Source: Paludibacter sp.
GTDB taxonomy: Bacteria; Bacteroidota; Bacteroidia; Bacteroidales; Paludibacteraceae
Assembly: GCA_017882285.1 (NCBI GenBank)
Contig: JADGPS010000005.1
Span: 2,680 to 66,679, forward strand
Length of the DNA stretch: 64,000 bases
Reading direction: 5' to 3'
Positions 12,531 through 42,074 of this stretch are shown here, piece after piece. The notes beneath the pieces are model-generated. The model saw only the letters and a list, made by a program, of their open reading frames with translations, ran no database searches and was not told the DNA's origin. The position numbers and the translations under genes are program-made. Every line of letters starts with the position of its first letter. The first letter of the stretch is position 1.

Positions 12531-12610
12531 TTCATAGTTCATAATTTATAATTCATAATTTGCTATGCAATAAATATTGCCGAAGGCAAAGAACTTTTAA
12601 ACTTTATAAA

Positions 12611-12629
12611 CCTGCCTACCGCAGGCAGG
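12611..12629. repeat. REP-like palindrome CCTGCCTACCGCAGGCAGG (family A)
   Basis: 7-bp arms; about 60 bp including flanks matches 41980-42040 in reverse complement. Confidence 0.85.
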
Positions 12630-12656
12630 CTTTCAAACTTTATAAACTAAGAAATT

Positions 12657-19435: not shown

Positions 19436-19987
19436 ATGAAAGAGGCAACAATATATTCTATAGGACACGGCAACAAAAAAATTGAGGACTTCATTAATGA
19501 ACTTAAGTCTTTCAATATTCTGTTTCTGCTTGACATTCGGTCAAAACCATTTTCAAAATGGAATCCTCAGTTTAATCAAAATGAACTAAAATTCAAAATA
19601 GAAGAAAATGGGATAAAATACGTTTATGTTGGTGACACGTTGGGTGGTCTTCCAGAAGACAGAACTTGCTATGATTACAATGGAAAAGTGGTTTATGACC
19701 TTATTAAGGAAAAGAATTTTTTTAAAGAGGGCTTAGAGAGACTTATAATTGCGAACGATAAAAATATAAATCTTGCAATCATGTGTAGTGAATCAAACCC
19801 TGAAGAATGCCATAGAAGTAAGTTAATTGGACAAGAATTACTCAAAAAGAAAATTTCTTTAAAACATATAATTTCAAACAAAGTTATTAAATCACAAGAA
19901 ATTGTGATGATTGAGTTAACAAAAGGCAAGGGAACAGTTGACCTTTTTGGTAATGAAATGGACTTTAGATCTCGCAAATCATACTAA
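19436..19987 (+). CDS. DUF488 family protein (copy 1)
   Basis: IYSIGHG, LLDIRSKPFS, LGG, AIMCSESNPEECHRSKLI. Confidence 0.88.
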   Translation: MKEATIYSIGHGNKKIEDFINELKSFNILFLLDIRSKPFSKWNPQFNQNELKFKIEENGIKYVYVGDTLGGLPEDRTCYDYNGKVVYDLIKEKNFFKEGLERLIIANDKNINLAIMCSESNPEECHRSKLIGQELLKKKISLKHIISNKVIKSQEIVMIELTKGKGTVDLFGNEMDFRSRKSY

Positions 19988-19989
19988 AT

Positions 19990-20466
19990 ATGAAATTTTT
20001 CACAATTGGAGTTTATAACTCAACAGAGCAAGAATATTTCAAAAAGCTCACTGATAATAATATTGATACTTTTTGTGATATTCGACAACGCAGAGGAGTT
20101 CGAGGCTCTCAATATGCCTTTGTAAACAGTAATAGGCTTCAGGCAAGGCTTAATGAGCTTGATATTAAATACGGACATATTATTGACCTTGCTCCAACAA
20201 CTGATATTAGAGAACTTCAAAAAGAAGTTGATAATCAGCAGGGTGAACTCAAAAGAGACAGAAACAAATTAGGTCAGGTTTTTACCATAGCTTATAAAGA
20301 CAGAATTTTGAGCAAATTCGATTTTGAGTCTTTTATAGACAAGTTAGATGAAGTTGGTGCAAATAAAGTTGTTTTGTTTTGTGTGGAGGAAAAGCCAGAA
20401 GCTTGTCATAGATCGATTGTGACTGACAAATTGGAAAAACTCGGATACGATATAACTCACTTATAA
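19990..20466 (+). CDS. DUF488 family protein (copy 2)
   Basis: FFTIGVY, FCDIRQRRGVRG, VLFCVEEKPEACHRSIV; starts 2 nt after the upstream stop. Confidence 0.85.
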   Translation: MKFFTIGVYNSTEQEYFKKLTDNNIDTFCDIRQRRGVRGSQYAFVNSNRLQARLNELDIKYGHIIDLAPTTDIRELQKEVDNQQGELKRDRNKLGQVFTIAYKDRILSKFDFESFIDKLDEVGANKVVLFCVEEKPEACHRSIVTDKLEKLGYDITHL

Positions 20467-21110
20467 TGGACGTAATAATAGTTTCAAAAACTCATATGTC
20501 TACTGCCGCTTGTGTTGGTGGAGTTCTTGCAAATGGTCGTTTTGTAAGATTACTTGACTCAAATGGTTACAATCAAAACAGTGATACTGACATTAATGTT
20601 GGTGATGTTTATACAATCACATTTGTTGAAAGACAGGATAAAAAACCACCTCATGTAGAAGACATTTTAGTCAACACAATGTCTTTTAAGTTCACTTTTT
20701 CTTCTATAGATGAAATGGTTGAATACTTGAAAGAAAAGTTGAAAGTTAAAATTTGGAAAGGAAGTACCGAAATTCTTTTTGATGGTAAACTTCAATGGAC
20801 AAGTGGAGGAAGTGGCTACATTTCAGAAAGTGGCGAAATACCTTATAATAGTGTTGGATTTTGGATACCGGATAAAGATTTGATTCGAAAAGATTATAAT
20901 GAAAAGGTAAGGTATAGTTATCCAATAAGATGGCGAAATATATCTTATGTTGGCTTCCTTAATCCACTTGATAAAATACCTGCAGGAACTTTGACAAGAG
21001 TTTCATTAGCAAGGTGGTGGTCTCCAAACGAAGATGAAGAAAGGTGCTATTTACAGTTATCTGGTTGGTATGGTTTACCCATCCAGTCGGATATATCTAA
21101 CACTGATTAA
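20466..21110 (+). CDS. Hypothetical protein resembling dual OB-fold (DuOB-like) nucleic-acid-binding domain
   Basis: TAATG overlap with upstream gene; IVSKTHM..ACVGG...VRL N-terminus, HVEDILV, RVSLARWW, CYLQLSGW; family call from recall only. Confidence 0.6.
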   Translation: MDVIIVSKTHMSTAACVGGVLANGRFVRLLDSNGYNQNSDTDINVGDVYTITFVERQDKKPPHVEDILVNTMSFKFTFSSIDEMVEYLKEKLKVKIWKGSTEILFDGKLQWTSGGSGYISESGEIPYNSVGFWIPDKDLIRKDYNEKVRYSYPIRWRNISYVGFLNPLDKIPAGTLTRVSLARWWSPNEDEERCYLQLSGWYGLPIQSDISNTD

Positions 21111-21168
21111 ATGTGCAATAGATCAGGCTTGGTTGTTGGGATTTTCTTTTAATCCCAACTCTTGTATT
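21104..21168 (+). repeat. 65-bp structured cassette-end repeat, copy 1 (homologous to 27749-27813 minus)
   Basis: TGATTAAATGTGCAA...TGGTTGTTGGGATTTTCTTTTAATCCCAACTCTTGTATT; 9-bp stem 21135-21143/21151-21159. Confidence 0.8.
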
Positions 21169-21174
21169 ACGAGG

Positions 21175-21259
21175 ACTTGCCTGCGGCAGGCAGGTTTTTC
21201 AATCCGATAAATAAATCGGTTTTAAGAATGCATTACAAACCTGCCTGCCGCAGGCAAGT
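21175..21259. repeat. REP doublet (BIME-like): two family-A palindromes as a perfect 21-bp inverted repeat
   Basis: ACTTGCCTGCGGCAGGCAGGT (21175-21195) and its exact reverse complement (21239-21259). Confidence 0.9.
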
Positions 21260-21326
21260 TCCACCTACAGTTCGCACCATTTATAACTATAATTGAGGGT
21301 ATATATCCGGAAGGACGAGAAATTAA

Positions 21327-21371
21327 TTTGCAACGCATTTGCTCGAAGCCGGAACTGATTTGCGGTATATC
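21327..21371 (+). pseudogene. Tyrosine recombinase box II remnant
   Basis: Translates FATHLLEAGTDLRYI. Confidence 0.8.
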
Positions 21372-21612
21372 AGAACAAAATTGTACTTCCTGCTCCAATT
21401 GTTTCAATTATCTTTGTTCAAAATTTCTTGTTTTAATTTCACGCCTTCATTCCTATTCTCATTTCAAAATTAAGAAGTTAATTATTATTAATGTGTTCTA
21501 AAACATGTTCTGCATTATTTATATAACTAAAATAAGCAGTATTTTTGGTCGACCAATCAGAAATTCGCCAACCTATTAAAAATCAATTACAAAATAACAT
21601 AAAAATAGAATA

Positions 21613-22455
21613 ATGAAAACGAACTATGAAATTCGGTATGCTTCACACCCTGAAGATGCGAAGAAGTACGACACTGCTCGCATACGAAAAGAATATTTAA
21701 TCGAAAAAATCTTTTCAGTGGATGAAGTAAATATGGTATATTCATTATACGACCGTTTGGTTGTTGGTGGTGCAATGCCTGTAAATCAAACTCTTACTCT
21801 CGAAACTATAGAACCATTGAAATCCGAATATTTCCTTTCACGCCGTGAATTCGGAACATTTAATGTTGGTGGAGCCGGAAAGGTAACTGTTGACGGAGTT
21901 GTCATCAATTTGGGATTTAAAGAAGCTTTATATTTGGGTGCAGGCGACCGCAAAGTAATGTTTGAGAGCATTGATGCTAAGAATCCTGCTAAATTTTACT
22001 TCAACTCTGCACCAGCTCACAAAAATTTTCAGGACAAAAAAATAACCAAAGCCGATGCCATTGTAGCAGAAATGGGTTCTTTAGAAGGTGCAAATCACCG
22101 AAATATTAATAAAATGTTGGTTTGTCAGGTTTTAGAAACATGCCAGTTACAAATGGGAATGACTGAATTAGCAGCGGGAAGCGTTTGGAATACTATGCCG
22201 GCTCATACTCACAGTCGCAGAATGGAAGCTTATTTTTATTTCGAAGTGCCCGTAGAAAATGCTGTTTGTCACTTTATGGGTGAACCGACCGAAACACGTC
22301 ATATATGGATGAAAGGTGACGAAGCGGTTATATCTCCTGAATGGTCAATTCACTCGGCAGCTGCAACCAGCAATTATACTTTTATCTGGGGAATGGCCGG
22401 TGAAAATCTCGATTATGGCGACCAGGATTTTTATAAAAATACGGAATTAAGATAA
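21613..22455 (+). CDS. kduI: 5-dehydro-4-deoxy-D-glucuronate isomerase
   Basis: [45 protein letters not shown]. Confidence 0.95.
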
Positions 22456-22556
22456 TAATTAGTTTGTAGTTTATAGTCTGTAGTTTATAGTAGAGGATAT
22501 TAAGCTGATACTATGGACGCAACTAACCAATTATACAAATAACCAACTAACAATAA

Positions 22557-23342
22557 ATGAATATGAATTTATTTGATTTAACAGGGAAAGTTGCATTTGT
22601 TACAGGTGCATCTTATGGAATAGGTTACGGATTAGCAAAAGCATTTGCTGCAGCTGGTGCAACCATCGTGTTTAACGACCTTAATCAGGAAAAAGTAGAA
22701 GGTGCAATCGCATCTTACAAAGCTGATGGAATTACCGCTCATGGTTACGTTTGCGATGTTACCGATGAGGAAGCCGTAATTGCTACAGTGGCTAAAATTA
22801 CCAAAGAAGTTGGTGTGATTGATATTTTGGTTAATAATGCCGGAATTATTAAACGTATTCCGATGGTTGAAATGACTGCAGCAGATTTTCGTCAGGTAAT
22901 TGATATCGATTTGAATGGACCATTCATCGTGTCAAAAGCAGTAATTCCCAACATGATTAAAAAAGGAGGTGGTAAAATCATCAATATTTGTTCTATGATG
23001 AGCGAATTAGGCCGCGAAACCGTTTCAGCTTACGCAGCTGCAAAAGGTGGGTTGAAAATGCTTACTAAAAATATAGCATCCGAATACGGTGAGTTTAATA
23101 TTCAGTGTAACGGCCTCGGCCCGGGTTATATTGCAACCCCACAAACAGCACCTTTAAGAGTAGAAGGTCATCCTTTCAACTCATTCATTATTGCTAAAAC
23201 TCCTGCTGCCCGATGGGGAACCCCTGAAGATTTGCAAGGTCCGGCTGTATTTCTCGCTTCTGCTGCTTCTGATTTTGTAAACGGACATATTTTATATGTT
23301 GACGGTGGCATTCTGGCTTATATCGGAAAACAACCCAAATAA
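22557..23342 (+). CDS. kduD: 2-deoxy-D-gluconate 3-dehydrogenase / gluconate 5-dehydrogenase SDR
   Basis: TGASYGIG, NNAGIIKRIPM, YAAAKGGLKMLT; follows kduI. Confidence 0.75.
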   Translation: MNMNLFDLTGKVAFVTGASYGIGYGLAKAFAAAGATIVFNDLNQEKVEGAIASYKADGITAHGYVCDVTDEEAVIATVAKITKEVGVIDILVNNAGIIKRIPMVEMTAADFRQVIDIDLNGPFIVSKAVIPNMIKKGGGKIINICSMMSELGRETVSAYAAAKGGLKMLTKNIASEYGEFNIQCNGLGPGYIATPQTAPLRVEGHPFNSFIIAKTPAARWGTPEDLQGPAVFLASAASDFVNGHILYVDGGILAYIGKQPK

Positions 23343-23349
23343 ATTTACA

Positions 23350-23370
23350 ACTTGCCTGCGGCAGGCAGGT
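23350..23370. repeat. REP-like palindrome (family A)
   Basis: ACTTGCCTGCGGCAGGCAGGT, identical to 21175-21195. Confidence 0.9.
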
Positions 23371-23396
23371 TTAATCATTTATAATTACTATTTGAA

Positions 23397-24527
23397 ATGA
23401 AAAAATCAGGATTATTAATTTTAGTTTCACTCCTTCTCGTTTCGGGTATTTTTGCTCAACGAACTATTGTTGTAACCAACAGTTTAGGAATTGACAGAAA
23501 AGGAGAAATTGTTGAAATCAGTTTATCAACATTTAAAGTTTCATTTGATTCAAAAACCTATGTTTTGAAAAACAATGAAAATAAAGAAGTTGGTTATCAA
23601 CTGGTTTTCAATGGAAATAAAAAACCACAATCATTTATTTTTCAGGTTGATGTAAAAGCAAATAAATCAAACAAATACACCTTGATTGAAGGAAAACCGG
23701 CAGTTGTAAAATCCAAAACATTTGCTCGTTTTGTCCCTGAACGCAAAGATGACTTTGCCTGGGAAAATGACTTGTGTGCCTATCGAATGTACGGGCCGGC
23801 ATTGGCAAATGAAAATCCAAGCAATGGCGTTGATCTTTGGGTCAAAAAAACAAACGAACTGATTGTAGATGAATTCTATAATGGTGAACTTAAGAATGGC
23901 ATTTCCTATCACGTGGATCATGGACATGGATTAGATTTATATAAAGTGGGCCATACATTAGGTTGTGGAGGAATTGCACCTTATTCTTCCAATAAACTTT
24001 GGGTTGAAAATCATTTCGATCATTACAAGGTTATTGAAGTTGGACCGCTTCGTTCTGTCTTCACATTGATTTATGATTCGGTAAAAGTGGGTGAATTGTT
24101 TTATAAACAAGAACTTACAATTACAACAAATGCAGGATCAATGCTTAATAAAGCCGAAGTAAAATACAGCGGTCCCGTTCAAAAATTGGAACTGGCAGCA
24201 GGCATTTTTCTTCATGATGGCAAAGGTACCTTGAAACAAATCATTTCAAACGGCACTTCTGCTTATGCCGAAGAAGCTGTTTCGGATGCAAAAGTTCCTT
24301 CAGGAAGAAATTACGTGGGATTTTATATTCCATCAAAAGTAAATGATGCTCGCAAAGAAGGTGAACATGGATTAATGACAAGTTCATATAAAGTTGGTGA
24401 TGCATTTACCTATTATTTTGGAGGCGGATGGAGCAAATGGGGCTACCCTAGCGACGATGCGTGGTTTAATGCTATAAACCGTTTCAGTGAAATTTCACGG
24501 AATCCGTTGAAAATTACTGTAAAATAA
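23397..24527 (+). CDS. DUF4861 family secreted protein
   Basis: Signal peptide; RFVPERKDDFAWEND...YRMYGP, DLYKVGHTLGCGG, YYFGGGWSK. Confidence 0.8.
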   Translation: MKKSGLLILVSLLLVSGIFAQRTIVVTNSLGIDRKGEIVEISLSTFKVSFDSKTYVLKNNENKEVGYQLVFNGNKKPQSFIFQVDVKANKSNKYTLIEGKPAVVKSKTFARFVPERKDDFAWENDLCAYRMYGPALANENPSNGVDLWVKKTNELIVDEFYNGELKNGISYHVDHGHGLDLYKVGHTLGCGGIAPYSSNKLWVENHFDHYKVIEVGPLRSVFTLIYDSVKVGELFYKQELTITTNAGSMLNKAEVKYSGPVQKLELAAGIFLHDGKGTLKQIISNGTSAYAEEAVSDAKVPSGRNYVGFYIPSKVNDARKEGEHGLMTSSYKVGDAFTYYFGGGWSKWGYPSDDAWFNAINRFSEISRNPLKITVK

Positions 24528-24608
24528 ATCCATTTGAATTATTGCTTTTCAACATCCCCGTTTTCGAATGAAAGCAGGGATTTGTTTTTTTGATTCATGG
24601 AAAATGCT

Positions 24609-24616
24609 TAATTTTG
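24609..24616 (+). promoter_or_regulatory. -7 box (TAATTTTG) for tsaB
   Basis: TAnnTTTG consensus upstream of the ATG. Confidence 0.5.
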
Positions 24617-24659
24617 CACCTTCAATTGTCAATTGTAAATGAATAAATTGTAAATAATA

Positions 24660-25346
24660 ATGATCATTCTCCATATAGAAACCTCTACTAATGTTTGTTC
24701 TGTCGCGTTAAGCGAAAACGGAACTTGTATTTTTTCCAAGTCAAATACTGATGGAATGAATCACGCAGCTTTACTGAGTGTTTTTATAGCCGAAGCGTTG
24801 GAGGTATTGAAATCCATCGATAAAAAATTGGCTGCGGTAGCAGTAAGCAGTGGTCCGGGTTCATACACCGGTTTGCGAATCGGGGTTTCAACGGCAAAAG
24901 GTTTGTGTTACGGCTTCGGAATTCCTTTGATTGCTGTAAGCACGTTGGAAGTTCTGACTGCTCAAGCTTTGAAGACAATAAAAAATGCTGAAAACGCTTT
25001 ATTTTGTCCCATGATTGATGCCCGGCGCATGGAAGTTTACGCAGCTTTTTATAATGGAAAAGGAGAAATAAAACGTGAAATTTCAGCTGACATCATTACC
25101 TCAGATTCATATACCGAAATACTTGCAAATCAACAGGTTTATTTTTTTGGAAATGGTGCCGAAAAATGCAAATACACCATCACTCATTCCAACGCACGGT
25201 TTATTGATAACCTGGTTCCATTAGCTGAAAATATGATTCCATTTGCCGAGCGTGCATTTATTGAGAACCAATTTGTAGATGTAGCCTATTTTGAACCGTT
25301 TTATCTGAAAGAATTTCAGACTACTGCTCCTAAAAGACCTTCCTAA
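24660..25346 (+). CDS. tsaB: tRNA threonylcarbamoyladenosine biosynthesis protein TsaB
   Basis: IETST..CSVAL, GPGSYTGLRIG, IDARRMEVY, EPFYLK. Confidence 0.93.
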   Translation: MIILHIETSTNVCSVALSENGTCIFSKSNTDGMNHAALLSVFIAEALEVLKSIDKKLAAVAVSSGPGSYTGLRIGVSTAKGLCYGFGIPLIAVSTLEVLTAQALKTIKNAENALFCPMIDARRMEVYAAFYNGKGEIKREISADIITSDSYTEILANQQVYFFGNGAEKCKYTITHSNARFIDNLVPLAENMIPFAERAFIENQFVDVAYFEPFYLKEFQTTAPKRPS

Positions 25347-25415
25347 AACTTATTGAGGGTGTGACGTTAAGTCACAAATGCGTGCATACAAAATTCTTAT
25401 TCCCCTTCAGGGGTC

Positions 25416-26819
25416 TTACAATACAAATTCCTGACCAGCCTCCGGTATTTCAATATCATGAAAACCAACCTTTTTCAATTCTTCTGCGTATTTTTGCTGC
25501 ACTTCGTATTCACCATGCACCAAAAAGGTTTTCTTGATTTGGCTGGTATCCTGACAACTCAGAAATGCTTTCATTTCGTTGTAGTCGCCATGCCCGGAAA
25601 AGGCTTCAATTTTTGCAATACGGGCATTTACTTCGTGAATTTCACCGAAAATGGAAATAAAACGCAATCCCGGTTCCTGAATTCGTGCTCCGAGTGAAGT
25701 CGGCGTGCAATATCCTACAATCAAAATAGTATTTCGCCAATTAGATACATTATTAGCTACGTGATGTTTAACCCTACCTGCTTCCAACATACCGGACGAA
25801 GAAATAATGATACAAGGAGTGTGATAATCATTCAACGCTTTTGATTCATCCACATTTTTGATATAATGCAAGGAATTGAATCCAAACGGATCTTCATCAT
25901 ACTTCATTGCTTCTTTCACTTCATCATTCATACATTCCAAATGCAGGCGGAATATTTCAGTAGCATTTACTGAAAGCGGACTGTCAACGAATACATCAAT
26001 TTTAGGCAATAAACCTTTGTTGTATAAATCATTAAGCACAAATACAATTTCCTGAGTTCTGCCAATGGAAAAAGAAGGAATAATCAATTTTCCACCATTA
26101 TCGACGCAGGTTTCCATTACAATTTTCAATAAATCTTCTTCTGTTTCTTTTTCTTCGGGATGCAAACGGTCGCCATAAGTTGACTCGGTAATCAGATAAT
26201 CACACTGTGGAAAAGCCGTTGGCGGATGTAATATTTTGTTATGCTGACGGCCAATATCACCGGTATAGGCCAGATGCACTTTTTTGCCATTTTCCAGTAA
26301 TTCCAGATTTACAACAGCACCACCCAACATGTGTCCGGTATTAGTGAATTTTACATTGATTTTGTCATTTATCTGGAAACGACGGTCGTAAGCAACTCCA
26401 ATAAACAATTCCATACATTTTTCGGTATCAATCTGGCTGTAAATTGGTTCTACCGGTGGAAGTCCCTGTTTTTCACGCTTTTTATTGAACCATTTAATAT
26501 CCAGTTCCTGAATATGGCCACTATCGGCCAACATAATGGAACATAAATCGCGTGTGGCATCGGTACAAACCACAGAGCCACGAAAGCCCAGTTTATACAT
26601 ATACGGAATCAGTCCCGAATGGTCGATATGGGCATGAGAAAGAATTAAATAGTCGATTGTTTCCGGATCGAACATCAGGTTACGATTCATCAAGTCGGTT
26701 TCCAATCCTTTTCCCTGAAACATTCCGCAATCGAGTAAAATGCGTTTACCTTCATTCGTGGTAATCAGATGTTTACTGCCGGTTACTTCGCGTGAAGCAC
26801 CAATAAATTTAATTTTCAT
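25416..26819 (-). CDS. MBL-fold beta-CASP metallo-hydrolase (RNA-specificity family)
   Basis: LDCGMFQG, HAHIDHSG, TESTYG, FSGHGD. Confidence 0.9.
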   Translation of the reverse strand: MKIKFIGASREVTGSKHLITTNEGKRILLDCGMFQGKGLETDLMNRNLMFDPETIDYLILSHAHIDHSGLIPYMYKLGFRGSVVCTDATRDLCSIMLADSGHIQELDIKWFNKKREKQGLPPVEPIYSQIDTEKCMELFIGVAYDRRFQINDKINVKFTNTGHMLGGAVVNLELLENGKKVHLAYTGDIGRQHNKILHPPTAFPQCDYLITESTYGDRLHPEEKETEEDLLKIVMETCVDNGGKLIIPSFSIGRTQEIVFVLNDLYNKGLLPKIDVFVDSPLSVNATEIFRLHLECMNDEVKEAMKYDEDPFGFNSLHYIKNVDESKALNDYHTPCIIISSSGMLEAGRVKHHVANNVSNWRNTILIVGYCTPTSLGARIQEPGLRFISIFGEIHEVNARIAKIEAFSGHGDYNEMKAFLSCQDTSQIKKTFLVHGEYEVQQKYAEELKKVGFHDIEIPEAGQEFVL

Positions 26820-27029
26820 AGTTGAACTTATTGATTAGTTTCGTTTTTCAATCCTCAAAACTACATATTCTTTTTTATAATAGCAAAAAAATAGTTTAGG
26901 AATCGAGCAAATTGATATTAGCCAATGAGTGAATGCATTTTTATTAGCAAACTATCAAATAAAATAGAAAAGTTTAGTATATTTGCCGTATTATTTAGCC
27001 ATTGATAGTTGAATATAAAAAATACAATT

Positions 27030-27239
27030 ATGAAAGTATTAGTTGATATACCTGATAATGAAATTACATTTGCAATGAAAGTTTTAAATAGTCTTTCGTT
27101 TGTAAAAAAAGCAAAGCCTTTGTCGGCAACCACTGCAAAATTATGGGATGATTTGAAAGAGGCTGCTGAAGAGGTTCGCTTACACAAACAGGGGAAAATC
27201 AAATTAAAATCAGCTCAAGACTTACTCAATGAGTTATAG
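27030..27239 (+). CDS. Small putative antitoxin
   Basis: 69 aa, overlaps the downstream RelE-like gene by 11 nt; -7 box TATATTTG at 26978-26985. Confidence 0.65.
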   Translation: MKVLVDIPDNEITFAMKVLNSLSFVKKAKPLSATTAKLWDDLKEAAEEVRLHKQGKIKLKSAQDLLNEL

Positions 27240-27561
27240 TATAATTCCTACCCACCGTTTTGAGAAAGAACTCAAACGACTTGTAAAGAAATACCCATCG
27301 CTCAAAAATGAATTTGCCGGATTTATTCAAAAAATCTTAACAAAACCGGCATTGGGAACTTCTATTGGCAATCATTGTTACAAAATTCGTATAGCTATTG
27401 CATCAAAAGGAAAAGGAAAATCGGGTGGAGCCAGAGCAATTTCATATTTATATATCGAAACTGAAACGGTTTATCTTTTAACTATTTACGATAAAAGCGA
27501 AAAAGAAGACCTAAAACCCAATGAACTCAAAGAAATGATTGAAAATTTGGAATTGGAATAA
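27229..27561 (+). CDS. Type II toxin, RelE/ParE family
   Basis: FEKELKRLVKKYPSL, YKIRIAIASKGKGKSGGAR, YLLTIYDKSE. Confidence 0.85.
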   Translation: MSYSIIPTHRFEKELKRLVKKYPSLKNEFAGFIQKILTKPALGTSIGNHCYKIRIAIASKGKGKSGGARAISYLYIETETVYLLTIYDKSEKEDLKPNELKEMIENLELE

Positions 27562-27594
27562 TACCGATTTCAGAAACAACTGTAATATTAAATT

Positions 27595-27656
27595 CGGCTG
27601 AACTTCAAATTTTGAGGTTCAGCCGATTACTTTTAAACAGGTAAGTTTGGTAACTT
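27595..27656. repeat. Hairpin-containing dispersed repeat, copy 2 (homologous to 4954-5016)
   Basis: CGGCTGAACTTCAAATTTTGAGGTTCAGCCG...AAGTTTGGTAACTT. Confidence 0.8.
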
Positions 27657-27748
27657 GCTTCTAACCCGACGTAGGCTCATAAGCCGAATAAAAGAGCGAA
27701 TACAATACGACCAACAAAGACAAAGAGAACGGATTAAAAAATCCGAAG

Positions 27749-27813
27749 AATACAGAAGGTGGGATTAAAAAGAAAATCCCACCAACCAGTGCCAAACTTT
27801 GCTCACTTAATCA
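27749..27813 (-). repeat. 65-bp structured cassette-end repeat, copy 2
   Basis: Minus strand TGATTAAGTGAGCAA...TGGTTGGTGGGATTTTCTTTTTAATCCCACCTTCTGTATT. Confidence 0.8.
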
Positions 27814-27840
27814 TTAAGGTATATCCAAGTGGACAAGGTT

Positions 27841-30684
27841 CTATTTCTTCACCAACTTTCTTTCAACAGTTCCTTCGGTGATTATAATCTTAACAATATA
27901 CATACCTTTGGAGAGAGTACTTATCGATACAGATTCATTGCCAGTGACTTGTTTAGTAAGTATTTCTTTACCACTAATATCCGTAAATTTTAAAGATGCT
28001 TTTCCAACAAGGCCGTTAATATGAAAACTTTCTGATGCAGGATTTGGATAAACTTTTATTGAATTATTCAATTCTGTTTGTTCAATATCTGAAGCTAATG
28101 TAAAGTTTGCGGTAACATTTTTATTTGAATTCATGATTACTGTTACCGAAGGATTTGTTCCTGTAGCATCTCCACTCCACGAAGTAAATATATAACCTGT
28201 ACTTGCAGTTGCAGTAAGTACAACCGAAGCTCCACTTGCGTAACTACCTAAATTAGGATTTCTCTGTACCGTTCCATTTACTGCCGTAACATTTAACACG
28301 AAAGTACCTGCTGTTGCAAATTCCACTATATTCGCAAAATCTTTCCATTGTGCCGCTGCCTGATATAAACTTTTTGAACCTATGGGCACATAAAGTATAC
28401 AAGTGGCTTTATTCACATAATCGAATACCCAACTTGATGCACTTATATTCACAGGTACGGTGGAATACGCATAAATTGAAGTTAAACCAAGGCAAGCATA
28501 AAATGCCCGACTTCCTATCGATGTAATTGACGAAGGGATGGTAATGCTCGTTAAACTACTGCAACCCCCAAAAGCACCAAATCCTATAGATGTAACTGAC
28601 GAAGATATGGTAACGCTTTTTAAGCCACTGCAAGATGCAAATGCAGCACCTCCTATCGATGTAACTGATGAGGGGATGGTAACGTTCATTATACCACTAC
28701 AATATGCAAATGCAGCATCTCCTAAAGATGTAACTGACAAAGGAATTGTAACGCTCGTTAAACCAAAGCAATAATAAAAAGCATAATTTCCTATCGAAGT
28801 AACTGACGAAGGTATGGTAACACTCATTAAACTAGTGCAATATTCAAATGCATCGTCTCCTATAGATGTAACTGACGAAGGTATTATATAATTGCCGGTT
28901 TTACCACTCGGATACTGAACCAGGTTAAGTTGGTTTTTATCGAACAAAACCCCGTTTATGCTGGAGTAATTTGGATTAGTAGTTTCTACATGTATGGAAG
29001 TTAAACTACTGCAATCTGTAAATGGACCAAATCCTATAGATGCAACTGACGAAGGTATTGTAACATTTGTTAAACCACTGCAACCACAAAATGCCCAATA
29101 TCCTATTGATATAACTGACGAGGGTATTGTGATGCTTGTTAAACCAATGCAAGCATAAAATGCACTACCACCAATAGATGTAACTGACGAGGGTATTGTG
29201 ATGCTTGTTAAACCACTGCAAGCATAGAATGCACCACCTCCTATCGATGTAACTGACGAAGGCATTGTAACGCTCTTTAAACCACTGCAATATTCAAATG
29301 CATCGTCTCCAATAGATGTAACTGACGAAGGTATTGTAATGCTTGTCAAACCACAAGCATAAAATGCCTGACTTCCTATAGATATAACTGAATTAGGCAT
29401 TCTAACCGCTTTTAAATTTGTTTTTCCAGGATATTTAGTAAAAGCCTGTCGCGGTATTTCATTGGCAGGATAATCCTCTGTGACAGTTGCTTTTATCAAC
29501 AATTTAACTTGTTGAGCAGGCATTTTATTCAATGGATGATCAAAGACAGGTTCTTTAGCCGTATTTTTTGCTTGGAAACCCGTCGATTTAACTCCTGCAG
29601 GTCCAGCAGAACCTGAATAGGCTATTATGGCTGTCCCGCTTAAATCAATATTGGTCAATGCCGGCATATCATCCCTCATGGTTCTAAAATCGCGCGCATC
29701 GAGGATACCATTGATGGCAAGGTTATTAACGATATTTAATTCACCGGCAGTTAAAGCAGTGGATAAAGTACCGGCAGCAGTTAACTGAATAGTTTTGGAA
29801 ACAGAAAAATCCCTTTCTACGATATTCGTAAAATCTTGCCATAATGCAGTCGATTGATATAATTCTTTAGAACCAATAGGAACTGCAACAATGCATTTGG
29901 CTTTATCTACTCCATAAAATGTATTTGCATCCAAGGTTGGCGGTGTGCTCCGTACTAATGATAAGGAAGTAAGCCCTAAACAATTTTGAAACGAATAGTT
30001 GCTGATATAATTTACAGAGTTACCTATCGTGATCGAATCTAATTTATTACAAAACCTAAATGCAGGTGGAATAATTGATGTAACTGTTGCAGGAACAACG
30101 TACGAACCAGCTTTATTTTGAGGATATTGAAGTAATGTAGTTTGATTTTTATTAAAAAGTATTCCATCAATACTGCTATAATTGGGATTTGACGTATCAA
30201 CAATAAAATCGGTAATTCCATTACATGGAGAAAAAGCATACCCGCCAATATTAATAAGGGTACTTGGTATTATTATTTTTCCTTTCAATCCACTGCCTTG
30301 AAAAGCATAATCTCCAATAGTTCTAATTGAAATTGGAATAGTTATCGAAGATATGCTATTGCTTTGAAATGCGCAAGCAGGTATACCATTTTCGGGATAA
30401 TTGATAATACTTGTACCGGAAGTTCCTCCTGAGCCGAAATAAGCGGCAATATTGACACTGCTTATCTCTAAAACTGCCAATGCAGGCATATTATCACGCA
30501 TAGTTTTAAAATCACGCGCATCAATCGTTCCGGTAATAGTGATGTCAGTAACTGTATTAAGTTCATTTGCAGTTAAAACAGTAGATAAAGTACCGGCAGT
30601 GCTAATGTCTACCGTTTTAGTAACTTGTGATTGCCCTATCAGGGCAAAACCTAAAATAAAGAAAAGGGTAATAATTTTTCTCAT
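27841..30684 (-). CDS. BspA-type (LRR_5) leucine-rich-repeat surface protein with InlB B-repeat-like domain and T9SS type-A CTD
   Basis: Probable start MRKIITLF at 30684; many 23-aa LTSITIPSSVTSIG..AF..C repeats; SWSGDATG module; VYPNP...GMYIVK CTD. Confidence 0.9.
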   Translation of the reverse strand: MRKIITLFFILGFALIGQSQVTKTVDISTAGTLSTVLTANELNTVTDITITGTIDARDFKTMRDNMPALAVLEISSVNIAAYFGSGGTSGTSIINYPENGIPACAFQSNSISSITIPISIRTIGDYAFQGSGLKGKIIIPSTLINIGGYAFSPCNGITDFIVDTSNPNYSSIDGILFNKNQTTLLQYPQNKAGSYVVPATVTSIIPPAFRFCNKLDSITIGNSVNYISNYSFQNCLGLTSLSLVRSTPPTLDANTFYGVDKAKCIVAVPIGSKELYQSTALWQDFTNIVERDFSVSKTIQLTAAGTLSTALTAGELNIVNNLAINGILDARDFRTMRDDMPALTNIDLSGTAIIAYSGSAGPAGVKSTGFQAKNTAKEPVFDHPLNKMPAQQVKLLIKATVTEDYPANEIPRQAFTKYPGKTNLKAVRMPNSVISIGSQAFYACGLTSITIPSSVTSIGDDAFEYCSGLKSVTMPSSVTSIGGGAFYACSGLTSITIPSSVTSIGGSAFYACIGLTSITIPSSVISIGYWAFCGCSGLTNVTIPSSVASIGFGPFTDCSSLTSIHVETTNPNYSSINGVLFDKNQLNLVQYPSGKTGNYIIPSSVTSIGDDAFEYCTSLMSVTIPSSVTSIGNYAFYYCFGLTSVTIPLSVTSLGDAAFAYCSGIMNVTIPSSVTSIGGAAFASCSGLKSVTISSSVTSIGFGAFGGCSSLTSITIPSSITSIGSRAFYACLGLTSIYAYSTVPVNISASSWVFDYVNKATCILYVPIGSKSLYQAAAQWKDFANIVEFATAGTFVLNVTAVNGTVQRNPNLGSYASGASVVLTATASTGYIFTSWSGDATGTNPSVTVIMNSNKNVTANFTLASDIEQTELNNSIKVYPNPASESFHINGLVGKASLKFTDISGKEILTKQVTGNESVSISTLSKGMYIVKIIITEGTVERKLVKK

Positions 30685-30783
30685 TGTCGTTCTATTTTGA
30701 AAGTTATTTAAAAAAAAATATTCCAAAGCTTGATTCTTGTTATAAGTCACTAATAATTTTACATAATATTTTATCTCTTGGTT

Positions 30784-32277: not shown

Positions 32278-32324
32278 TATTTAGAATGTAATCTTAATAT
32301 TTCTTGCCTACTCTCCCGCTTTTT

Positions 32325-32372
32325 CGGCTTTCGCTCCCTACTCTGTTTCGGATTTTCGGGGATGTTCCGTTC
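32325..32372. repeat. 48-bp direct repeat, copy 1 (3' side of Kelch gene)
   Basis: TCGGCTTTCGCTCCCTACTCTGTTTCGGATTTTCGGGGATGTTCCGTT; 42/48 identical to 33575-33622. Confidence 0.85.
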
Positions 32373-32376
32373 AGGT

Positions 32377-33528
32377 TTATTGTTTTATAAATTTTTTTGT
32401 TATTATTCCACTTTTATTCTGTATTTGAATTAAAAAAATTCCGACTGGCAATTTTTTCACATCAATTTGATTATCACGAATCTGTTTATGTATAAACACT
32501 TTGCCACTTAAATCAGATATTGTAGCATCTGAGACTTGGATTAATCCGGCAATATTCAAAATGCTATTTGATTGATTCATATAAATTTTGAAATTATCAA
32601 CCATATTGTTAGAAAGCCCTGACAACAATCCGTCTGAGACTTGAAGACTTGACAAAGCACTGTTACTATAAGAACTTTGATTTCCACCCATTACATACAG
32701 TTTTCCATTTAATGCCACAGTTCCGGCATGTCTTCTACCAATCAAATTGCTTTGAACTGTTGCAAATTCATTTTTAACCACATCATAATAAGCCAGATAA
32801 GTCAGTATTGTATAATCACCCACAATCCATATTTTATTATCCCAATAAGTAGTGGCATGTGCCGAAACGCCTTGCGGCATATTCATAATAAAAGTCCATG
32901 TATTGGTCTGAATATCATACATATCAATTCGTGTCGAAACCGAACCATTATAACCGCCAATCACATATAGTTTCCCATTTACTATTTCCCCTTTTGTTTG
33001 TTTCCCTTCAGGCATACTTGCCAGTTCAGTCCAAACTTCAGTTGCAGGATCGAAAACATATAGTTTATTGGAATTTACAATGCCCTGACTTCCCCCGAAA
33101 ACATATATTTTATTGTTCCATACTGCCGAGCCGGATTGTTCTACAGGGTTGGGATTATCGGTTGAATAAGTAATGCTTCCGGTTGTCAGGTCAACAACTT
33201 CCATTTTGGCATTGTATGAAGTACTTGAATATCCATTAAAAATATACAATTTGTTCCCGATTACTTTTGAAGCAGTATACCTTTTGGGTATTAAAGAGTT
33301 TGCAAATACTGTCCATGAATCGGTTGAAATATTATATTTTTCAATTTCGGTGGTATATCCTGCTGTAAAAGTAAAACCGCCGTTGACATATATATTCGCA
33401 CCATCTGTAGCACTTGAAATCAATCCACGAGCAACATTCATGTTAGCTCCATTATGAAAACTAATTTGTGCTGTTGTTAAATTGCCACTTATAAGATAGA
33501 TTGCAAGAATAAAAGTAATTCTTTTCAT
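32377..33528 (-). CDS. Kelch-repeat beta-propeller protein with T9SS type-A CTD
   Basis: IYVFGG, LYVIGGY, LYVMGG Kelch motifs; C-terminal LPVGIFLIQI...TKKFIKQ. Confidence 0.88.
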   Translation of the reverse strand: MKRITFILAIYLISGNLTTAQISFHNGANMNVARGLISSATDGANIYVNGGFTFTAGYTTEIEKYNISTDSWTVFANSLIPKRYTASKVIGNKLYIFNGYSSTSYNAKMEVVDLTTGSITYSTDNPNPVEQSGSAVWNNKIYVFGGSQGIVNSNKLYVFDPATEVWTELASMPEGKQTKGEIVNGKLYVIGGYNGSVSTRIDMYDIQTNTWTFIMNMPQGVSAHATTYWDNKIWIVGDYTILTYLAYYDVVKNEFATVQSNLIGRRHAGTVALNGKLYVMGGNQSSYSNSALSSLQVSDGLLSGLSNNMVDNFKIYMNQSNSILNIAGLIQVSDATISDLSGKVFIHKQIRDNQIDVKKLPVGIFLIQIQNKSGIITKKFIKQ

Positions 33529-33574: not shown

Positions 33575-33622
33575 TCGGCTTCCGCTCCCTGCCTTTTTTC
33601 GGATTTTCGGGGTTGTTCCGTT
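33575..33622. repeat. 48-bp direct repeat, copy 2 (5' side of Kelch gene)
   Basis: TCGGCTTCCGCTCCCTGCCTTTTTTCGGATTTTCGGGGTTGTTCCGTT. Confidence 0.85.
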
Positions 33623-33635
33623 TATATATAGAGTA

Positions 33636-33950
33636 GAGACGCCATTTCTCAACCGAAAGACCCTATTTCGTAATCGAGAGATACAATTTCTCAATCAAGA
33701 GTTGCTATTTCGCAACCAAGAGAAGCGATTTCGCTACCGTGAGACGCTATTTCGCAACCCAGAGACCCTATTTCGCAACCAAGAGACGCTATTTAGCAAC
33801 CGAGAGACGCCATTTCGCTATCAAGAGAAGCGATTTCGCTACCGAGAGACGCTATTTCGCAACCCAGAGATTCAATTTCGTAACCAAGAGACGCTATTTA
33901 GCAACCAAGAGACGCTATTTCTTGACTATGAGAAGCGATTTCGCTACTTA
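33636..33950. repeat. Tandem array of 15 degenerate 21-bp units (consensus GAGACGCTATTTCGCAACCAA)
   Basis: Units contiguous with no spacers; 105-bp higher-order period. Confidence 0.95.
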
Positions 33951-41976: not shown

Positions 41977-41996
41977 TCAGTTTATAGAGTTTGAAA

Positions 41997-42017
41997 GCTT
42001 GTCTGCGGCAGGCAGGT
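41997..42017. repeat. REP-like palindrome (family A, degenerate)
   Basis: GCTTGTCTGCGGCAGGCAGGT within a ~60-bp match to 12590-12650 (reverse complement). Confidence 0.8.
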
Positions 42018-42074
42018 TTGTAAAGTCAGAAAGTTATAGATACTAATTCTTTAAGTCCCTTTAGGGGTTTGGGG

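Follow-up and report, generated by a model that had tools for sequence, protein, structure and literature searches.

Two repeats in a Paludibacter genome as probable members of a REP/REPIN-type family linked to a REP-associated tyrosine transposase

The two structured repeats in the window (the whole 64-kb stretch of Paludibacter DNA that was analysed) are very probably members of a family of non-autonomous mobile DNA, of REP/REPIN type, in Paludibacter-like Bacteroidota. REP/REPIN-type elements and the REP-associated tyrosine transposase (RAYT) are an already known kind of bacterial selfish DNA. A sequence-only reading had reported a 65-bp repeat at 21104-21168 (+) and 27813-27749 (-), each copy in sense orientation after its upstream gene. 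Both copies are present at these sites and in this orientation, and their match is far above chance. In a repeat search of the window they pair as an inverted repeat with 41-nt arms (73%) and a 30-nt core (83%), and the window has two instances of the pattern GGGATT-N4-14-AATCCC where shuffles predict 0.06. Under the family's covariance model the E values are ~1e-20 for copy 2 (103.5 bits) and ~1e-17 for the left unit of copy 1 (90.6 bits). The 65 bp first given fall short, as a unit spans ~125 nt and copy 1, a doublet, extends over 242 bp. Many more copies exist, according to related metagenome-assembled genome (MAG) loci, metagenome depth and the covariance-model scan.

A hairpin-based search of the genome collection returned 46 loci. 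About 20 matches from the hairpin scan, in 15 MAG loci of Paludibacter, Paludibacteraceae and Bacteroidales, share ~125 nt of flanking homology, and in one MAG near-identical copies interrupt contigs and delimit an element of 228 nt that has terminal inverted repeats. The unit has four parts: the 18-nt terminal inverted repeat CCCTGTCCnnCCGGATAT, hairpin A, the conserved motif TGTAyT, and hairpin B (GGATTnnnAATCC); it is bounded by the terminal inverted repeats CCCTGTCC...GGACAGGG and folds into two short independent hairpins in addition to them. Across genera the sequence itself is conserved, beyond the structure. Rfam gave no match for the repeat, and a literature search found this Paludibacteraceae family nowhere described. 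The coordinates of the features are collected in Table 1.

Table 1. Features of the two window copies and complete elements in related loci
Feature	Position	Strand	Remark
Copy 1: complete ORF-less inverted doublet (REPIN-like), 242 bp	21078..21319	+	Terminal repeats, metagenome contig breaks, model scores
Left terminal inverted repeat CCCATCCAGTCGGATAT	21078..21094	+	Encodes the start of the 10-residue tail that the DuOB ORF takes from the element
Copy 1 hairpin A, GTTGGGATT ttctttt AATCCCAAC, then T-rich TCTTGTATT	21135..21159	+	Core of the repeat first described
Copy 1 hairpin B (GGA...AATCC), unrelated palindrome CTTGCCTGCGGCAGGCAGG inside its loop	21173..21205	+	
Doublet centre GATAAATAAATCGGTTTTAAGAATGCATTACAAA	21206..21239	+	Matches the junction left by transposase ORF deletion
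Nested palindrome, second copy	21237..21259	+	Stands where the right unit would have hairpins B' and A'
Right terminal inverted repeat, GTCCTTCCGGATAT on the minus strand	21303..21319	-	0 mismatches; repeat boundary 21316/21318
Copy 2: single unit (singlet)	27717..27843	-	Model score 103.5 bits
Copy 2 terminal inverted repeat CCTTGTCCACTTGGATAT	27821..27838	-	
Copy 2 hairpin A, GGTGGGATT ttcttttt AATCCCACC, then TTCTGTATTC	27758..27783	-	
Copy 2 hairpin B, CGGATT tttt AATCCG, then TTCTCTTTGT	27730..27745	-	
Complete unit-gene-unit element	L041:1217-422		
Complete unit-gene-unit element	L122:108-979		
Complete unit-gene-unit element	L122:1366-2251		
Complete unit-gene-unit elements	L080, L107, L068, L065		

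Copy 1 consists of a left unit, a centre similar to the centres of other doublets, and a degenerate inverted right unit. The model scored the left unit over 21072-21219 (+) and the right unit at 25.8 bits over 21191-21325 (-), and the terminal repeats align at 21081-21094 (+) and 21303-21316 (-). The metagenome assembly marks the same limits: unique contigs end at 21079/21107 and resume at 21318, loose ends lie at 21078 and 21316, and contig depth is raised across 21048-21317. The element begins at codon 205 of the ORF 20466-21110, whose Pfam DuOB match stops at residue 201. Copy 1 had been thought to be cut short by a REP insertion; the palindrome in question instead sits within the hairpin B loop, its second copy is 100% complementary to the first over 23 nt (21237-21259 against 21175-21197), and the element runs on past it to the right terminal repeat. 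Copy 2 begins 2 nt past the stop codon of a BspA-type LRR / T9SS gene, depth is elevated over 27711-27851, and one repeat contig spans 27710-27838.

The stems GTTGGGATT/AATCCCAAC and GGTGGGATT/AATCCCACC were correctly drawn, and the T-A to G-C swap between them is a true compensatory change: at this position every type of Watson-Crick pair occurs in the family (CG 25, GC 25, UA 12, AU 7). Selection on the hairpin structure, claimed from that single swap, is borne out by covariation across the family in both hairpins. Among 85 distinct units, double changes occur in 14/14 stem pairs. Of the stem-pair cells 96.6% are paired, in an alignment that was fitted to the model's own structure and so favours it; slid controls gave 29-56%, and 0/500 shuffles reached the observed double changes and pairing. 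G-U pairs make up only ~17/954 cells (~2%). Preservation of the pairing through compensatory change, and the scarcity of G-T pairs, would be expected because the transposase would read the hairpins on single-stranded DNA.

The link to a transposase comes from related loci. In Paludibacter MAGs and peat/bog metagenomes, inverted pairs of units flank a gene of 180-195 aa, and a Y1/HUH transposase is the only ORF ever met between the repeats (at least 7 independent loci). The gene matches NCBIfam NF047646, the equivalog model for REP-associated tyrosine transposase, at 101.9 bits (E 2.8e-29; cutoff 80 bits), whereas it reaches only 21.8 bits with the NCBIfam IS200 model, below the cutoff of 55 bits. 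Its product is over the cutoff for Pfam Y1_Tnp (25.5 bits), and its top PDB match, a weak one (E 0.04), is E. coli TnpArep (4er8). The motifs NH[MV]H, WQ and YIH[YQN]NP and the length of ~180 aa fit subclass 2.6 (RAYT group 5), a published Bacteroidetes subclass. The left unit of the L041 element contains the exact hairpin described for the window, and is 88% identical to copy 2 over 104 aligned nt and 78% identical to copy 1. In L122, two intact transposase copies and one remnant lie inside 3.5 kb. By tblastn, the 64-kb window has no transposase gene. The source permafrost run contains an 8092-nt contig with a depth of 11.1, similar to that of the window genome; its end is ~84% identical to the L041 transposase gene in the N-terminal part, and continues into the motif IYAWVLMT. 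This depth-matched metagenome contig is the sole ground on which the transposase may be placed in the window's own genome.

The alignments show the doublets (230-290 bp) to be elements minus the transposase ORF. The L009 doublet aligns with the L041 element up to the transposase ATG and again from 2 nt past the stop codon, and L122:3050-3426 is a doublet retaining the first 20 codons of the gene. Four metagenomes from soil, peat and permafrost show a ~4- to 200-fold increase in contig depth at the repeat; Logan depth goes from ~10-12 to 51-185 exactly over the element in the source permafrost run, and stands at 470-1040 against ~5-50 in the flanks in a soil run. Because no empty site was found, mobility is deduced from the number of copies and the near-identity of some of them rather than seen directly. 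The high copy number, the element length of 230-290 bp and the clear terminal inverted repeats would also be seen with an ordinary cut-and-paste MITE, in which the RAYT gene is a passenger and a DDE transposase recognises the terminal inverted repeats of 18 nt. We regard this as very improbable: target-site duplication is absent at every copy with both flanks known, near-identical young copies included, the ORF between the repeats is always the Y1/HUH transposase, and conservation extends beyond the terminal repeat to the whole terminal 125 nt with its two covarying hairpins.

The repeats had been taken for attC-like recombination sites bounding cargo cassettes, that is, folded single-strand sites of an integron-like system, each closing a mobile gene cassette. 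Several features speak for such sites: the repeats lie in sense orientation after ORFs, short gene-repeat-gene-repeat runs occur in L014, L038 and L002, the doublet is a long imperfect palindrome, and structure is kept through compensatory change as in attC sites. The reading is nevertheless already largely refuted, and we give it almost no probability. The RYYYAAC and GTTRRRY boxes are unconserved in the family. ATCTAAC (21095-21101), proposed as an R''-like box, lies in a stretch that the family alignment shows to be unconserved and to include an insertion unique to copy 1. The 12-mer GTTAGAAGCAAG (27665-27654), to which copy 2 was said to lead on, falls outside the unit, which ends at ~27717, and in L009 it belongs to another repeat. 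The unit is bounded by terminal inverted repeats, its two short independent hairpins form no bulged R/L stem, and conservation across genera covers the sequence as well as the structure. The window ORFs of 200-600 aa that were scanned included no integrase-like protein; the enzyme partner in related loci is the HUH tyrosine transposase. The supposed unrelated cargo blocks are ordinary chromosomal genes, with core metabolic and housekeeping functions between the copies (kduI, kduD, DUF4861, tsaB and a beta-CASP RNase).

Every high-scoring left-type unit is turned towards the 3' end of the upstream gene on its own strand (19/19; 16/16 in a first count). A simple transposase model does not predict this strictness, which counts against our preferred explanation. 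It speaks for a purely host 3'-end RNA module, an intrinsic terminator or structured 3' UTR conserved for its RNA function with only an incidental link to the transposase. Hairpin A of both copies and hairpin B of copy 2 passed a lax hairpin-plus-T-rich-tail scan, and REPs in other bacteria lie mainly downstream of ORFs, with many believed to be transcribed (PMC3733652). Against this, the T tails are broken up (TTTGTATT), and the scan found 9 terminator candidates against 6.4 expected, no enrichment over shuffles. The scarcity of G-U pairs suits DNA hairpins better than RNA helices, Rfam gives no match, and the terminal inverted repeats, inverted doublets, assembly-breaking near-identical copies and position on either side of a transposase gene are typical of mobile DNA. 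A purely host module thus seems unlikely. A terminator-like role of the unit is plausible, as a candidate only: because the T-rich-tailed hairpin points inward from the terminal repeat, just past the upstream stop codon, the unit may also serve to terminate transcription or to stabilise the 3' end.

For the REP/REPIN-type family, we propose that the autonomous form (a "REPtron") would be two inverted units flanking the gene for the ~180-aa HUH/Y1 RAYT. Loss of the ORF leaves doublets such as copy 1; singlets such as copy 2 also exist. The transposase would recognise the hairpins on single-stranded DNA and cut and rejoin at the unit ends, steps modelled on the established behaviour of RAYT and IS200/IS605-type HUH enzymes, and would in this way spread units in trans.

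Classic REPs are single palindromes of 20-40 nt with a 5' GTAG foot; the present unit has ~125 nt, two hairpins and an 18-nt terminal inverted repeat, and the units carry no conserved 5' GTAG-type tetranucleotide. The closest known system is TnpA-REP subclass 2.6 (Quentin et al. 2018, PMC6006769), equivalent to RAYT group 5 (Bertels et al. 2017, PMC5581495). Shared with REP/REPIN-RAYT systems are a HUH/Y1 transposase of ~180 aa with the motifs NHxH, WQ and YIH[QN]NP in the phylum Bacteroidota, a structured repeat that brackets the gene as inverted copies and is also dispersed in the genome, the presence of both inverted doublets (REPINs) and singlets, and intergenic repeats downstream of ORFs that at times provide the stop codon (PMC3733652). 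The family differs in that its doublets are the autonomous element with exactly the ORF removed, in its strict orientation to the upstream gene, and in a transposase that can be multi-copy (L122), whereas the classic RAYT is single-copy and domesticated. With IS200/IS605 and its ORF-less derivatives (PATEs) it shares the Y1 HUH transposase, the lack of target-site duplication, short non-autonomous derivatives and subterminal hairpins that would be read as single-stranded DNA. However, its transposase passes the RAYT model and not the IS200 model, its ends are mutually inverted copies whereas IS200/IS605 has different hairpins at the left and right ends, on one strand, and its orientation tracks the neighbouring gene rather than one replication strand. 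Integron attC sites resemble it in lying in sense at the 3' end of ORFs, in functioning as folded single strands and in compensatory change, but the repeats here lack R''/R' core boxes, a bulged R/L stem and, among the window ORFs scanned, an integron integrase; they have a HUH transposase as partner, and the flanking genes are not cassettes. Like the transcribed intergenic MITEs and REPs of the ERIC, YPAL and BIME types, the units lie directly past stop codons, are likely co-transcribed, carry a T-rich-tailed hairpin and are able to extend or end the upstream ORF; whereas those elements have no known partner, the present element is tied to a RAYT, and its effect at the RNA level is putative.

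The two structured repeats of the window are very probably REP/REPIN-type units of a Bacteroidota system of REP-associated tyrosine transposases (RAYTs), copy 1 being an ORF-less inverted doublet (a REPIN) and copy 2 a singlet. Both copies lie where the sequence-only reading had placed them and match as it described, forming an inverted pair whose 41-nt arms are 73% complementary (83% over a 30-nt core). The pattern GGGATT-N4-14-AATCCC occurs exactly twice in the 64 kb, where shuffles predict 0.06 occurrences. Each copy is downstream of its own upstream gene on the same strand, and the double change from T-A to G-C that separates the stems of copy 1 and copy 2 is compensatory.

Selection on structure, which had been proposed from that single double change, is borne out across the family. 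RNAalifold applied to 18 copies predicted hairpins A and B only, and the consensus fold consists of a 9-bp and a 5-bp hairpin, each short and separate from the other. In the covariance-model alignment, double changes are found in all 14 of the 14 stem pairs and 96.6% of the cells are paired, pairing counts that are biased toward the structure of the model to which the alignment was fitted. None of 500 shuffles reached the observed covariation values, and slid controls were 29-56% paired. The stem position that had first drawn attention takes CG, GC, UA and AU across the family. Only about 2% of cells are G-U, a scarcity more in keeping with a DNA hairpin than with an RNA helix, though not decisively so. 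A closing RNA stem formed by the two terminal repeats of an element was rejected upon manual comparison, as compensatory change was not seen and the central two positions were always mismatched.

The shared unit is longer than the 65 bp originally assigned to it. It extends over about 125 nt and consists, in order, of the terminal sequence CCCTGTCCnnCCGGATAT, an AT-rich stretch ATT(G/A)ATTA(A/G)ATG, hairpin A (the stem first noticed), TGTAyT and hairpin B GGATTnnnAATCC. A scan of the genome collection with the exact hairpin pattern returned 46 loci. Homology far past the hairpin is shared by about 20 of the matches, which come from 15 MAG loci of Paludibacter, Paludibacteraceae or Bacteroidales. 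One MAG held four near-identical copies at or near contig ends, from which a 228-nt element was defined; its right half repeats the left in inverted, diverged form and terminates in ATATCCGGnAGGAC. Inverted doublets are represented by copy 1 and by six of the related loci (L009, L014, L026, L033, L038 and L043; L-numbers denote loci in related MAGs or in peat or bog metagenomes). Copy 1 was not cut short by a REP insertion, as had been thought: the supposed REP is a separate palindrome of 19-23 nt within the loop of hairpin B, and it recurs in the right half. A covariance model built from the 18 copies recovered 89 units in 35 sources, including all three units of the window (103.5, 90.6 and 25.8 bits). 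L010 contains a tandem partial duplication, in which a full unit is followed by a second copy starting from model position 52. Rfam gave no family, whether the entire window was searched with gathering scores or 20800-28100 with E values up to 5; the only hits, miRNA-like ones to the nested palindrome, were dismissed as spurious.

Coordinates of the repeats and of the associated features (positions are in the window unless a locus is named)
Feature	Location	Strand	Remark
DUF488-DUF488-DuOB operon	19436-21110		three genes; Pfam PF04343 twice, PF22557
DuOB gene	20466-21110	+	upstream of copy 1
Copy 1	21078 to ~21319	+	terminal repeats: left 21081-21094, right 21303-21316
RelE-family toxin gene	27229-27561		convergent toward copy 2
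Terminator-like hairpin	27594-27626		strong, 15 bp, bidirectional; after RelE-family toxin gene
12-mer GTTAGAAGCAAG	27654-27665; L009 ~6197 and ~4605
Copy 2	27843-27717	-	single unit
BspA-type LRR / T9SS gene	27841-30750	-	upstream of copy 2
Palindrome family CTTGCCTGCGGCAGGCAGGTTT	12604-12632, 21169-21197, 21233-21261, 23344-23372, 41991-42019		second, shorter family
Mini-palindrome TCCCGATAGCTATCGGGA	L122:779-796, ~853-870, 896-913; also L068, L074, L104, L124		18 nt
48-nt direct repeat	32324-32371 and 33575-33622		88% identical; downstream and upstream of Kelch-repeat gene
Kelch-repeat gene	32377-33528	-
21-nt tandem array AGAGACGCTATTTCGCAACCA	33635-33947		~14 copies, 78% matches; intergenic, upstream of Kelch-repeat gene
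RAYT cluster	L122:108-3426
Tandem partial duplication	L010:1161-1343

It had been conceded that the candidate family would fall if only these two copies existed. DNA of the window is present in permafrost, peat and soil metagenomes, and Logan contigs from four runs were mapped onto both copy regions. Exactly across the element, word depth rose from about 10-12 to 51-185 in the source run; in a soil run, it reached 470-1040, with about 5-50 over the flanks. Over the four metagenomes, the depth of the repeat was some 4- to 200-fold that of the flanking unique sequence. At copy 1, unique contigs end at 21079/21107 and resume at 21318, and contigs of other genomic contexts are joined at 21078 and 21316. 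The depth jump and the joins to other contexts show that the copies are not limited to two. No empty-site joint was found among the Logan contigs mapped on either copy, and a search of KduI-encoding contigs for empty sites in related strains returned the source contig alone. The family also explains why assemblies of peat and permafrost Paludibacteraceae break at these element sites.

The link to a transposase came from scanning metagenomes for the right terminal repeat; of the 85 loci obtained, about 65 were chance matches and about 18 real. In the real loci the unit adjoins a gene starting MDIKNRIEGEVYFVTDTVVDWVDIF...NHMHMI...YIHYNPV. The unit-flanked protein scored 101.9 bits (cutoff 80, E 2.8e-29) against NCBIfam NF047646, the equivalog model for REP-associated tyrosine transposase, and matched Pfam Y1_Tnp over its cutoff. 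Its best PDB match, a weak one, is E. coli TnpArep (4er8), and its motifs are NH[MV]H (NHMH), WQ and YIH[YQN]NP. By homology, the transposase would recognise the unit hairpins as single-stranded DNA. Homologues located by tblastn lie beside units in seven loci from metagenomes and in L041, L043 and L044 from Paludibacter and Bacteroidales MAGs, and a RAYT gene lies between inverted repeat copies in L041, L122 (twice), L080, L107, L068 and L065. In L041, the left unit carries the very hairpin first noticed in the window (the unit is 88% identical to copy 2 and 78% to copy 1) and ends 22 nt ahead of the ATG that opens a 179-aa transposase ORF; 3' of the stop codon, an inverted right unit terminates in GGATATCCGGTAGGAAGGGG. 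The same unit-transposase-unit layout occurs two times in L122. The doublet of L009 aligns to L041 until the ATG and then again from 2 nt past the stop codon, and one L122 doublet retains the initial 20 codons of the transposase gene. Judged from these alignments, the doublets are RAYT-bearing elements minus the ORF. No RAYT was detected by tblastn in the 64-kb window; in the source run, a contig of a depth matching the window genome carries one.

The same repeats had been taken as a candidate family of attC-like sites. This reading is rejected, as the core boxes, the fold, the lack of an integrase and the neighbouring genes all stand against it. The R''-like box ATCTAAC falls in a non-conserved stretch containing an insertion unique to copy 1, and the R'-like box GTTAGAAGCAAG is outside the unit and in L009 belongs to another repeat, one of about 100 nt that is present there twice (…GGTCGCAGTTAGAAGCAAGGCTTTGCCTTGCATATTGAAATG…). 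GTTRRRY is absent from the ends of units and doublets, which read CCCTGTCC...GGACAGGG. An integron attC is one bulged imperfect palindrome of 57-141 bp with R/L boxes and extrahelical bases, whereas two separate short hairpins are found here. No integrase-like Pfam match was obtained among 24 window ORFs scanned (180-970 aa) or elsewhere in the annotated neighbourhood; the scanned ORFs are ordinary chromosomal genes (lgt, PAP2, LysM, kduI, kduD, DUF4861, tsaB, a beta-CASP RNase, a nucleoside symporter, panB, prmA and amt). The arrays of single genes separated by the repeat that an integron would imply did not appear, runs holding at most 2-3 units. The RAYT reading, a documented one, replaces an attractive but wrong one, that of integron-like cassettes in a Bacteroidota genome.

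The placement of the units relative to genes follows a rule that may interest mobile-DNA researchers. In all 19 of the 19 high-scoring left-type units (16 of 16 in an earlier count), the terminal repeat points toward the 3' end of a gene on the same strand, often 0-4 nt from the upstream stop codon or overlapping it, and whole transposase-bearing elements are likewise co-oriented with the upstream gene. The direction of replication fails to explain the rule, because the two window copies are on opposite strands 6.6 kb apart. According to Di Nocera et al. (PMC3733652), REPs are mostly located downstream of ORFs, are possibly transcribed and can provide stop codons. The element provides the stop codon for some ORFs (window copy 1, L027 and L041); in the DuOB ORF, it begins at codon 205 and encodes the final 10 residues (PIQSDISNTD) and the stop codon. 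The family thus explains the short element-encoded tails on some ORFs, the DuOB gene included. Stop codons in all three frames were discarded as a property of the unit (24% of units vs 22% of shuffles), and so was a small hydrophobic peptide across hairpin A, which keeps neither its reading frame nor its start and stop codons from copy to copy. Hairpin A fits a lax terminator consensus in both copies, with interrupted T tails, and a role as terminator is plausible on that account. One metatranscriptome run contained a few words of window sequence and none across the element. That orientation, stop-codon placement and element co-orientation reflect a real mechanism and not mere tolerance seems to us rather unlikely; the mechanism might be transcription-linked or gene-3'-end-directed targeting by the HUH transposase, or else recruitment of the units by the host as standard gene-end (terminator) modules, in which case read-through would express the transposase.

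The family also accounts for a second class of mini-palindromes nested within the units. Two copies of CTTGCCTGCGGCAGGCAGGTTT within copy 1 form a perfect inverted pair of 23 nt, one copy directly follows the kduD stop codon, and nowhere in the window is metagenome word depth higher than over this family. Units from peat metagenomes have an analogous mini-palindrome, TCCCGATAGCTATCGGGA, inserted into their hairpin loops; it also occurs in frame within the RAYT ORF, adding four residues (VPIA) as compared with L107 and L080. The 48-nt direct repeat around the Kelch-repeat gene is another gene-end repeat family.

Among known systems, the IS200/IS605 elements have an IS200-type TnpA and subterminal hairpins that lie on one strand and differ between left and right, whereas here the NCBIfam transpos_IS200 model reached 21.8 bits, under its cutoff of 55, and the ends are mutual inverted copies. 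A classical MITE, derived from a DDE element, would share the terminal inverted repeats but also have a target-site duplication; none was seen at the copies whose two flanks are known, nor was a conserved target motif found. Nothing specific on a MITE of this kind in Paludibacter or Bacteroidetes was found in the literature, a weak negative. The REP/REPIN-RAYT systems (REPtrons) agree in the RAYT gene between inverted repeat copies, seen here in the related loci, in their many dispersed, mostly intergenic hairpin repeats and in having inverted doublets as the common non-autonomous form. They may differ in the copy number of the transposase: RAYTs are usually described as single-copy, vertically inherited genes, and in L122 a stretch of 3.5 kb contains two intact unit-RAYT-unit elements, whose proteins are 97% identical, together with one doublet that has lost the ORF, a more IS-like multiplicity. 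Their repeats carry a conserved 5' GT[AG]G (or CGTC) foot tetranucleotide, which is not seen here, the conserved flank being TGTAyT 3' of hairpin A. TnpA-REP subclass 2.6 (RAYT group 5) matches this transposase in motifs, length and phylum; it is mostly of Bacteroidetes, lacks the residues reading the GTAG foot, and has genes flanked by atypical secondary structures with copies elsewhere in the genome (PMC6006769, Quentin et al.). As the repeats of this subclass are atypical and its members are without the GTAG-recognition residues, the missing foot is compatible with membership in it. An element of RAYT type is thus a known kind, and this particular family with its detailed anatomy appears undescribed. 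The ~125-nt two-hairpin unit with its terminal inverted repeat, the autonomous form bearing the transposase, the ORF-deleted doublets and the singlets give a concrete anatomy to the secondary structures that the literature on the Bacteroidetes subclass only mentions.
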